Below are positions 20,941 to 22,776 of a stretch of 64,000 nt of DNA, piece after piece. Position 1 is the first letter of the stretch, and every line of letters starts with the position of its first letter. The stretch spans positions 25,346 to 89,345 of the forward strand of contig CAYYJR010000001.1 in assembly GCA_964472305.1 (NCBI GenBank). The letters run 5' to 3'. The stretch comes from an uncultured bacterium. GTDB taxonomy: Bacteria; Armatimonadota; Hebobacteria; CAIYQO01. The position numbers and the translations under genes are program-made. Below the pieces are notes generated by a model that worked only from the letters and a program-made list of their open reading frames with translations, ran no database searches and was not told the DNA's origin.

Positions 20941-22776
20941 TTACTTGCCGCCGCCCGCGTCCTTTTCCTCGGGGATCACCACGCGGAAGCCCACCAGATA
21001 ATTCGCGTTATCCGGGGTGTAGGGGTAGCGATATGCGCAGTAACATTTCGCTCCATCCTGGGACCAGTGGCCGCCGCGCGCGGGGTGACTGGGATTGACG
21101 TTGTAGTTTTTTTCTTTCGGCGGCGCGGTGGCTGGGCCTTGCGGGTCTTTCGGCGGCGCACTCGCGTAGTAGGCGGCATCGTACCAATCCGACACCCATT
21201 CCGCCGCGTTGCCCAGCATATCGTTGGCACCGTAGGGGCTGGCGCCTTTGGGATAACTGCCGACCGGCGCGGCTTTGCCAAGGCCGGATTCTTTGTGGTT
21301 GCACCGTTCCGGGTCCCATTCATTGCCCCACGGGTATTTACGCCCATCGGTGCCGCGCGCCGCCTTTTCCCATTCCGCTTCAGTAGGCAGGCGTCCGCCG
21401 GCCCATTTCGCATAGGCGACGGCATCGTCGTATGACACATTCACCACCGGGTGCGTCGGCTGCAGGCCCGCTTTCGGCGGAAAGGCCATACGGTGACCGG
21501 TGGCATTGCAGAATTGTTGGTATTGCGCCACCGTCACCTCATTGCGATAGATCCAGTAGCCGGACAGGGTGACGGTGTGTTGCGGACGCTCGTCGCCTTT
21601 GCCGCCTGTGCCCTTTGCCGTGCCCATGATAAACGGACCGGCGGGCACATACACCACTTCCGCTTCATCCCGGGTGTTCACCTTCACCACGATGCTGATC
21701 GGGGTCGGCTCGATCTGTGTCACGGCGGTCGTACCACCCTTCGGCGGCTGCCCGGCGGCAGACGCCGCGGTGCAATCCGCGCGCACGTACTGCACTCGGT
21801 CGCCCACGACGCCGAACTGTAACCAATCATATTGCAGCCATTGTACCTTGATCGGCAAGCCGGCTGGATTGCGCAGCTCATCTGCCTCGCGGCCATCCTC
21901 GGCGCCCAGCTTCGCGTGCACCTCCGCCAGCGTGGCGCCATCGACGCCGACCACCACATACTGGATGCCGGCGACCTTGCCTTTTCGTCGCGCCAGTTCG
22001 TTCAATCCGCTGGTCAGCCCTTGCGCGGTCAGGTCCTGCAAATCTTTCGCCAGTGTCGCGGCCTTGCCGGCGGCGACCACTTCCGGCGTCAGATCTACCA
22101 CCGACCATCCCAGGCTCAGCGTCTTCGGATTGCCCAACAGCTTCAGCACGGCTTGCTGTTGCGCGGCGCGTTGTGCGGCATCGACGGGAGTTTTGGCGGG
22201 TTTCGTCGTGTTGCTTGACTCCGGCGGCACTTCCAGCGTCAGCAGCAATTCGGCGGCGCTCTTCTTGCCTTCGTCCGCGGCCATGCGCAGCGGGGTGCGG
22301 CCATCATGATCTTGAATTTTTCCGTCGCCTTTGCTGGCCATCAACTGCATTAATATTGCATCCTGTCCAGTGGCTGCCGCCCAGTGCAACGGCGTGCGGC
22401 CATCCTTGTCGCGCGCGTTGGGATCAGCGGCTTTCGCCAGCAACAACGTGACGATGTCCTGATAGCCCCAGGCCGCGGCGTAGTGCAGCGCGGTATAGCC
22501 GTCCTTGTCCGCCACCGTCACATCCGCGCCGCGCGTCAGCAGCGCGGCGACGACATCCTGCTTGCCCAGGGCACTGGCAAAAATCAGCGCGGTGCGTCCG
22601 TCGGCGTTTGGCGCGTTGAGCAGTCGGGCATCAACCTTCAACAACTGTACCACGCCGGTGACATCGCCCACCGCTGCCGCCGCGCGAATATCCCGCACTG
22701 CGCTTTGGGCGGACAATCCGCACCACAGCAGCAATCCGAGGGTTAGCAGTACCGAATAGGGGGTGCCGTATCTCAT
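20941..22776 (-). CDS. Secreted ankyrin-repeat protein fused to a formylglycine-generating-enzyme (FGE/SUMF1)-like domain
   Basis: Start ATG 22776 (SD GAAGGA) gives signal peptide MRYGTPYSVLLTLGLLLWCGLSAQS; ankyrin repeats (DGRTALIFASALGKQDVVAALLTRGADV..., DGYTALHYAAAWGYQDIVTLLL..., DGRTPLHWAAATG...); C-terminal FGE-sulfatase-like domain (GSYPKGASPYGANDMLGNAAEWVSDWY...RGGHW). Confidence 0.75.
   Translation of the reverse strand: MRYGTPYSVLLTLGLLLWCGLSAQSAVRDIRAAAAVGDVTGVVQLLKVDARLLNAPNADGRTALIFASALGKQDVVAALLTRGADVTVADKDGYTALHYAAAWGYQDIVTLLLAKAADPNARDKDGRTPLHWAAATGQDAILMQLMASKGDGKIQDHDGRTPLRMAADEGKKSAAELLLTLEVPPESSNTTKPAKTPVDAAQRAAQQQAVLKLLGNPKTLSLGWSVVDLTPEVVAAGKAATLAKDLQDLTAQGLTSGLNELARRKGKVAGIQYVVVGVDGATLAEVHAKLGAEDGREADELRNPAGLPIKVQWLQYDWLQFGVVGDRVQYVRADCTAASAAGQPPKGGTTAVTQIEPTPISIVVKVNTRDEAEVVYVPAGPFIMGTAKGTGGKGDERPQHTVTLSGYWIYRNEVTVAQYQQFCNATGHRMAFPPKAGLQPTHPVVNVSYDDAVAYAKWAGGRLPTEAEWEKAARGTDGRKYPWGNEWDPERCNHKESGLGKAAPVGSYPKGASPYGANDMLGNAAEWVSDWYDAAYYASAPPKDPQGPATAPPKEKNYNVNPSHPARGGHWSQDGAKCYCAYRYPYTPDNANYLVGFRVVIPEEKDAGGGK

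Follow-up and report, generated by a model that had tools for sequence, protein, structure and literature searches.

A 64,000-nucleotide stretch of DNA from an uncultured Armatimonadota bacterium (assembly GCA_964472305.1, contig CAYYJR010000001.1, positions 25,346–89,345; the whole stretch is called the window here) carries on its minus strand a gene, named here the Ank-FGE gene, whose product joins ankyrin repeats to a domain with the fold of the formylglycine-generating enzyme (FGE). We found that this open reading frame (ORF) is a genuine gene for a three-part protein, in which a signal-peptide-like start is followed by the ankyrin repeats, a first linker, a middle domain, a second linker and the FGE-fold domain. 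Nine full-length orthologues with the same ankyrin–middle–FGE architecture were found at 41–47% identity. The C-terminal domain has the FGE fold and, as judged from its residues, is no formylglycine-generating enzyme, and the middle domain is an undescribed domain family as far as Pfam, NCBIfam, PDB and BFVD show. The product is probably a modular protein that is exported and serves, without catalysis, as a binder or scaffold.

The FGE-like nature of the C-terminal domain had been proposed from the letters of the DNA alone (hereafter, the sequence-only reading) and withstood the domain searches. The Pfam family PF03781 (FGE-sulfatase) matched residues 372–600 with an E-value of 1e-51 and 176.5 bits against a cut-off of 23.3, and the match covered profile positions 3–254 of 255, a near full-length hit above the gathering score that places the domain in the PF03781 superfamily. 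The closest solved structures by phmmer were true FGEs (6muj, 4e-30; human FGE, 1e-27), and the relatives in the PDB comprised FGE, EgtB, OvsA, SUMF2, PvdO, PorK and TvpA. Furthermore, the fold-core motifs RLPTEAEWEKAARG, GNxxEW and RGG...GFR were invariant in the orthologue alignment.

The copper-binding cysteine pair of active FGE, which the sequence-only reading had suggested looking for and which we take to be C336 and C341 of the human enzyme, was found to be absent. In the phmmer alignment with the human and Streptomyces FGEs, Q573 was placed at C336, C578 at C341 and C580 at C346, with a 3-residue deletion in the segment. When 231 FGE-like domains of the 120 closest relatives were aligned by hmmalign together with two FGE fragments, the window protein again had Gln at C336, with Gly/Ala at C341, and Cys/Cys was not among the 30 commonest residue pairs at the two catalytic columns in these domains. 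Cys578 was present in the window protein alone and Cys580 in about half of the orthologues, and the orthologues P0003, P0006 and P0007 contained no cysteine in the segment of residues 573–580. The two active-site cysteines five residues apart that mark a SUMF1-type FGE were therefore not found. True FGEs hold copper with two active-site cysteines (bioRxiv 10.1101/2021.05.21.445229), and because this pair is absent the domain would be unable to oxidise cysteine to formylglycine.

The statement that no sulfatase gene lies in the window was also borne out. Matches to the sulfatase signature (PS00523/CxPxR) occurred only in short ORFs or in plus-strand ORFs overlapping longer minus-strand ORFs, none of them a credible gene, and PF00884 had no match in the 30 long window ORFs scanned. 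No sulfatase was found in the nine orthologue neighbourhoods, and a sulfatase substrate of an FGE (C/S-x-P-x-R) was thus seen neither in the window nor in these nine contexts. With the cysteine pair absent, the lack of a nearby sulfatase is to be expected and is not puzzling. It could still be argued that the protein is a genuine FGE maturing sulfatases encoded elsewhere in the genome, given the strong Pfam match, the true FGEs as best solved relatives and the possible alignment of Cys578 with human Cys341 by phmmer. However, the first catalytic cysteine is replaced by Gln573 in both alignments and the segment has the 3-residue deletion, Cys578 occurs in no orthologue, several orthologues are cysteine-less in the segment, and sulfatase genes were found in none of the neighbourhoods. 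This reading appears already largely refuted by the absent cysteine pair, and we give it next to no chance.

Other catalytic members of the superfamily were considered as well. The protein has no DinB_2 domain in Pfam and is for this reason not EgtB- or OvoA-like. None of the NCBIfam equivalogs for EgtB, GldK, SenA, PvdO and OvoA reached its cut-off: the scores were 84 against 360 for EgtB (TIGR03440) and 73 against 420 for NF041186, which does not place the protein among the EgtB, OvoA or SenA synthases, 81 bits against 350 for GldK (TIGR03525), and 59 bits against 500 for PvdO (NF051459), a dihydropyoverdine dehydrogenase; no siderophore genes were found nearby. An enzyme of another chemistry is nevertheless conceivable, either a PvdO-like periplasmic oxidoreductase or maturation factor or a CalU17/ToxD-like tailoring enzyme, for which the ankyrin repeats and the middle domain would recruit the substrate. 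The PDB sequence matches to PvdO (7e-13), CalU17 (3e-25) and ToxD (2e-23), the NCBI name given to relatives, 'SUMF1/EgtB/PvdO family nonheme iron enzyme', and the conservation of Arg583 and Lys577 among orthologues speak for such an enzyme. Against it, the domain has no known metal-binding set, neither the cysteine pair nor the three-His DinB_2 domain, the PvdO equivalog score lies far below its cut-off, no biosynthetic cluster adjoins the gene in the nine contexts, and the groove-forming loops vary among orthologues, which is unusual for an active site. Taken together, an enzyme of another chemistry seems unlikely.

The region between the ankyrin repeats and the FGE-fold domain, which had been taken for a low-complexity linker, turned out to be mostly a folded and conserved domain of about 140 residues (200–341). 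Disorder and low complexity, as judged from an AlphaFold confidence score (pLDDT) below 50, were confined to residues 186–199 and 342–364. The middle domain was conserved in 9/9 full-length orthologues and closes with the motif W-x-x-Y-[GD]-W-L-x-F-G-V-x(7)-V-R-A-D-C. When modelled alone from a 34-sequence alignment, it gave a pLDDT of 94.2 and a predicted template modelling score (pTM) of 0.87, and the order of helices (H) and strands (E) in the model was H-E-H-H-H-E-H-E-E-E-E-H. The domain had no match in Pfam at E≤10 and none in NCBIfam, and its profile matched no sequence in the PDB. Similarly, Foldseek searches with the model against PDB and BFVD returned nothing at E≤1e-3, and among the top 50 matches that were listed for either database the TM-score was ≤0.33. 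With an exhaustive phmmer search, 26 proteins with the middle domain were recovered from 1.84 billion cluster representatives (50% identity clusters), and three of them had the Ank-FGE architecture. A local hidden Markov model (HMM) found full-length copies, often two in tandem, in 20+ other architectures. A scan of GTDB species-representative contigs with the middle-domain alignment, for which two patterns were used, gave no confirmed relative; going by these patterns, the genomes searched lack the family or have it in too diverged a form.

Among the proteins found by phmmer (P0121–P0143), tandem pairs of the middle domain were seen in proteins of about 400 residues that begin with a hydrophobic segment of signal or anchor type; one of these proteins is annotated as Gemmataceae (Planctomycetota). 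Most of the proteins with the middle domain outside the Ank-FGE group start with a segment that resembles a signal or a membrane anchor. In the other contexts inspected, the domain stood after zinc ribbons (cytoplasmic) and a hydrophobic segment, after a trypsin-like protease, or with WD40 repeats. The extracytoplasmic location of the P0121–P0143 middle domains was assigned by eye. We consider it possible rather than probable that the middle domain is the founding example of a new extracytoplasmic family, perhaps with a new fold, that the Ank-X-FGE-fold protein represents a periplasmic adaptor of a new type, and that its expression might be tied to the GlnR-like regulator encoded next to it.

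The count of at least three ankyrin repeats that had been noticed at first is correct, as AlphaFold gave five helix pairs. The Pfam families Ank (9e-27), Ank_2 (6e-29) and Ank_4 matched the region, with E-values of 1e-27 to 6e-29 for Ank/Ank_2, and ankyrins and DARPins were its matches in the PDB. In the AlphaFold model, the five helix pairs follow each other at a 33-residue spacing over residues 28–182 with a pLDDT of about 90 or higher; with its helix-turn-helix repeats in tandem, which match the Ank profiles, this is an ankyrin-repeat protein. The alignment showed that the window protein has one 33-residue repeat more than every orthologue.

The signal peptide that the sequence-only reading had seen at the N-terminus is consistent with what we found. 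By eye, the start consists of MR, about 15 hydrophobic residues and the small residues SAQSA, and the pattern of MR, hydrophobic stretch and A-x-A was kept in 15/15 aligned Ank+FGE proteins, mostly with a clean A-R-A site. AlphaFold predicted residues 5–23 as a single helix. No lipobox was read in the N-terminus and no transmembrane segment was found in the protein. From this pattern, we infer export via the Sec pathway. The positions of all these features, together with the regulator gene discussed below, are given in Table 1.

Table 1. Positions of the Ank-FGE gene, the parts of its product and the divergent regulator gene in the window.
Feature	Position	Strand	Basis or remark
Complete coding sequence	20941..22776	-	611 aa + stop; ORF listing, translation
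Shine-Dalgarno-like AAGGA	22784..22788	-	7 nt upstream of ATG 22776; read from sequence
Signal-peptide-like N-terminus, aa 1-26 (MRYGTPYSVLLTLGLLLWCGLSAQSA)	22699..22776	-	By eye; homologue pattern; AlphaFold helix
Ankyrin-repeat solenoid, five helix pairs, aa 28-185	22222..22695	-	Pfam, PDB matches, AlphaFold
Linker 1, aa 186-199, Pro/Ser/Thr/Lys-rich	22180..22221	-	pLDDT <50 at aa 184-196; unconserved in orthologues
Middle alpha/beta domain, aa 200-341, ~140 aa	21754..22179	-	Conservation, local HMM, AlphaFold
Linker 2, aa 342-364, Ala/Pro/Gly/Thr-rich	21685..21753	-	pLDDT <50 at aa 342-361; variable length and sequence
FGE-fold (PF03781, C-type-lectin-like) domain, aa 365-602	20971..21684	-	Pfam, PDB relatives
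aa 573-580, QDGAKCYC, aligned to the catalytic Cys pair segment	21037..21060	-	phmmer, hmmalign, orthologue alignment
GlnR-like orphan response regulator	23069..23743	+	Pfam GlnR_1st and Trans_reg_C; divergent from the Ank-FGE gene

Because other cysteine-less FGE folds, namely PorK, Tsi3 and TvpA, act by binding, a binding role was preferred for the window protein. After Sec export, it would consist of three independently folded modules on flexible linkers: the five-repeat ankyrin solenoid, which would offer a surface for protein–protein interaction, the alpha/beta middle domain of about 140 residues, and the FGE-fold domain of C-type-lectin-like type with its fold core kept. By analogy with PorK/GldK, Tsi3 and TvpA, the former substrate groove of FGE may serve as a docking surface for one ligand, which could be a protein, a peptide or a glycan, and the ankyrin repeats, the middle domain or both may bind a further partner or anchor the protein in the envelope. 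Several points weigh against this reading. Arg583 is invariant and Lys577 is present in most orthologues, and these residues could serve binding or catalysis. The AlphaFold pLDDT is only 40–60 at residues 476–524 and 563–593 of the FGE-like domain. Relatives carry the 'nonheme iron enzyme' name at NCBI, and the cysteine-less PvdO, CalU17 and ToxD are enzymes or enzyme-linked. In addition, the signal peptide was called by eye, and its SAQSA cleavage site is less canonical than the ARA of the orthologues. The earlier remark that the function is unclear was fair.

The spread of the fusion was followed among the 120 best relatives, 15 of which combine Ank and FGE-sulfatase domains, in each case behind a signal-peptide-like N-terminus. 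NCBI labels two relatives of Ank-FGE architecture as Armatimonadota. The FGE-like domains of the ten ankyrin–middle–FGE proteins were mutual nearest neighbours with 55–84% identity, and these ten proteins therefore form one orthologous family. The fourth of the short Ank-FGE proteins, P0034, grouped with this main family, and the other three (P0041, P0113 and P0118) as well as the larger P0085 had non-ankyrin proteins as nearest neighbours. This suggests that at least some Ank-FGE fusions arose independently. In the remaining close relatives, the FGE-like domain either has a Ser/Thr kinase, a TIR domain, a trypsin-like protease or PEGA domains as its fusion partner or occurs in tandem, and the C-terminal domain of the window protein is about 40–53% identical to those of the kinase, TIR and protease fusions. 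The fusions to kinases, TIR domains, proteases and PEGA domains form a pattern that is typical of a module reused for binding or sensing. The claim that Ank-FGE fusions are uncommon in bacteria thus holds in part: with 15 of the 120 best relatives they are not one-offs, but the exact ankyrin–middle–FGE architecture is rare, with three representatives among the 1.84 billion. A literature search found no paper joining FGE-sulfatase and ankyrin.

The gene itself is well delimited. It starts at ATG 22776, and the same Met-Arg start was seen in all orthologues of the alignment. A longer ORF from TTG 22932 was dismissed, since the orthologues start at the Met-Arg of 22776 and AAGGA precedes that ATG; the extension would also reach into the promoter-like, conserved block of the adjacent regulator gene. 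The G+C content of the gene is that of the remaining window, and an identical protein (P0001) is already present in NCBI and in Logan assemblies.

The Ank-FGE gene stands alone in the window: on one side it converges with a DUF1385 gene, and on the other it is transcribed divergently from the gene for a GlnR-like orphan response regulator. Also close by are dnaX, the gene for ribosomal protein L31 and an FeFe-hydrogenase pair. The divergent regulator was found in three lineages (window, P0014 and P0008), in which the other neighbours were wholly different; the regulators were 79–81% identical among themselves and the Ank-FGE proteins 43–45%. The GlnR-like regulator gene is a conserved neighbour of the Ank-FGE gene, and a functional link between the two is putative. 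A second synteny was seen in P0010, P0013, P0007, P0006 and P0003, where recR is followed, in some of them through a gene for a 164-residue protein, by the Ank-FGE orthologue, with a gene for a pentapeptide-repeat protein on the opposite strand. No conserved operon, enzyme or substrate partner was found across the nine orthologue contexts, and the remaining neighbours were housekeeping genes that differed between lineages. The 164-residue protein is encoded between recR and the orthologue in one lineage (L002, 6338–6832; L004, 6225–6719; L005, 6396–6890). Its last ~45 residues weakly match the winged-helix types HTH_9, NPR2 and DUF7342, and the protein is a candidate for a small DNA-binding protein; the window contains no homologue of it.

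Besides the window copy, the regulator was located at L007 6097–6771, L008 867–1541 and L010 6001–6672, with 67–81% identity within the Armatimonadota group. Among GTDB species genomes, the nearest regulator was that of an Armatimonadota metagenome-assembled genome (MAG; 67% identity), and the next-best matches were actinobacterial GlnR proteins of about 40% identity. In this distant MAG, two paralogous proteins with zinc ribbon and ankyrin repeats are encoded divergently from the regulator (L010 3507–5736, minus strand), and both are without signal peptide, middle domain and FGE domain. The adjacency of ankyrin and regulator genes in L010 may be coincidental or may be what is left of an ankyrin–regulator linkage.

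The divergent intergenic region of the window spans 292 bp (22777–23068). Upstream of the regulator, about 190 nt of non-coding DNA (22880–23068, plus strand) were conserved in three genomes and partly in a fourth, and the half adjoining the Ank-FGE gene was unconserved. The conserved part contains a promoter-like TAGACC-17-TACAAT at 22905–22933 and a leader of ~135 nt with three predicted hairpins, in which compensatory changes were seen at 6/39 predicted pairs among three sequences only. A search of the intergenic region against Rfam gave no credible match.

Two further observations concern other parts of the window. The FeFe-hydrogenase pair (23862–28577, minus strand) consists of a gene for a large subunit that carries a fused NuoE-like 2Fe-2S domain of thioredoxin type and, after it, a gene for a NuoF-like flavoprotein; a gene set of this kind belongs to an NADH-linked and possibly electron-bifurcating hydrogenase. 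At 42006–43865 and 43875–45596 (minus strand), tandem paralogous genes encode proteins of 619 and 573 residues, and long stretches of the two genes share 80–94% nucleotide identity. Neither has a Pfam match, and both lie in a glycoside hydrolase cluster with two GH36 melibiase-like genes and one GH95 gene.

The comparison with known systems begins with the true FGEs (human SUMF1 and those of Streptomyces coelicolor and Thermomonospora curvata), which share the Pfam family and the core motifs with the window domain and matched it at 4e-30 to 1e-25. The window domain differs from them in the missing cysteine pair and sulfatase, and also in that it lacks about 50 residues that FGE has between conserved blocks one and two. 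SUMF2 (pFGE) is a non-catalytic FGE fold without the catalytic cysteines that acts by binding, and its structure 1y4j matched at 3e-18; unlike the window protein, it is a single-domain eukaryotic protein of the endoplasmic reticulum without fusion partners.

PorK, GldK and GldJ, the ring/track lipoproteins of type IX secretion (the T9SS), resemble the window protein in having an extracytoplasmic FGE-fold domain without the two catalytic cysteines. In PorK this domain is a protein docking hub (PMC12421860), and PorK structures matched the window domain at 2e-11 to 3e-11. PorK and GldK are, however, lipoproteins with large insertions in the fold and are encoded beside porLMN/gldLMN, whereas the window protein has no lipobox, carries ankyrin repeats and an extra domain, stays below the TIGR03525 cut-off and has no T9SS neighbours (the neighbouring genes are those for L31, DUF1385, the GlnR-like regulator and the hydrogenase).

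Tsi3, an FGE-like immunity protein of type VI secretion, is likewise periplasmic, has an FGE domain that lacks the catalytic cysteines and acts purely by binding its effector protein (bioRxiv 10.1101/2021.05.21.445229). As a special case of the binder model, the window protein could act in the periplasm as an immunity-type binder or a decoy and neutralise a toxin or enzyme that comes in, and the much faster evolution of the Ank-FGE protein than of the neighbouring regulator would agree with such a role. But genes of the Tsi3 type lie in effector–immunity modules, whereas the window gene stands among housekeeping genes in a stable synteny, neither the window nor the orthologue contexts show an effector or type VI secretion system gene beside the gene, and its product has two further N-terminal modules. 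PADLOC returned generic ankyrin matches only, on which ground membership of a defence system was dismissed. An immunity role is thus held to be very unlikely.

TvpA and the variable proteins of FGE-sulfatase type in diversity-generating retroelements (DGRs) use an FGE/C-type-lectin module for ligand binding, often behind assorted N-terminal fusions (PMC5758913). FGE-sulfatase domains are the largest class of DGR targets (PMC5758913), TvpA (2y3c) matched the window domain at 8e-11, and Tyr, Asn, Cys and Asp are frequent in the C-terminal segment, so that hypermutation of this part to vary ligand specificity was considered. A template-like repeat of the 3' end (20941–21150) was, however, not found within the 64-kb window, the codons of the segment (tgt, tat, gat, aat) are not of NNC/AAC type, and the segment is well conserved, not hypervariable, within orthologue sub-lineages. 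No reverse-transcriptase family appeared among the gene calls of the nine orthologue contexts or in the scanned window ORFs, although no search aimed at one was made in the window. The template repeat of a DGR was thus not seen in the window, nor its reverse transcriptase among the genes scanned, and it is extremely improbable that the gene is a DGR target.

In one family of bacterial kinases, FGE-sulfatase is listed among the partner domains at the C-terminus (bioRxiv 10.1101/2025.01.12.632604), and in the kinase, TIR and protease fusions the domain is coupled to a signalling or effector enzyme, whereas in the window protein it is coupled to interaction modules only. The surrounding sequence space of kinase, TIR, protease and ankyrin fusions is without catalytic cysteines, and the annotation as 'nonheme iron enzyme' is probably misleading. 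A strong 'FGE-sulfatase' match should not be equated with sulfatase maturation, and the window protein is a clean example of this. It also brings to light a well-folded domain family, absent from Pfam, NCBIfam and PDB, which occurs in at least two little-studied phyla in proteins that are exported or associated with the envelope. These findings do not overturn current understanding, and their value lies mainly in annotation and domain discovery. If a partner is found, the protein would be an addition to the short list of repurposed FGE folds formed by PorK, Tsi3 and TvpA. Cysteine-less repurposed FGE folds and promiscuous fusions of the domain were known from these systems already; what the window protein adds to them is a lineage-restricted architecture with a domain that is absent from the libraries.

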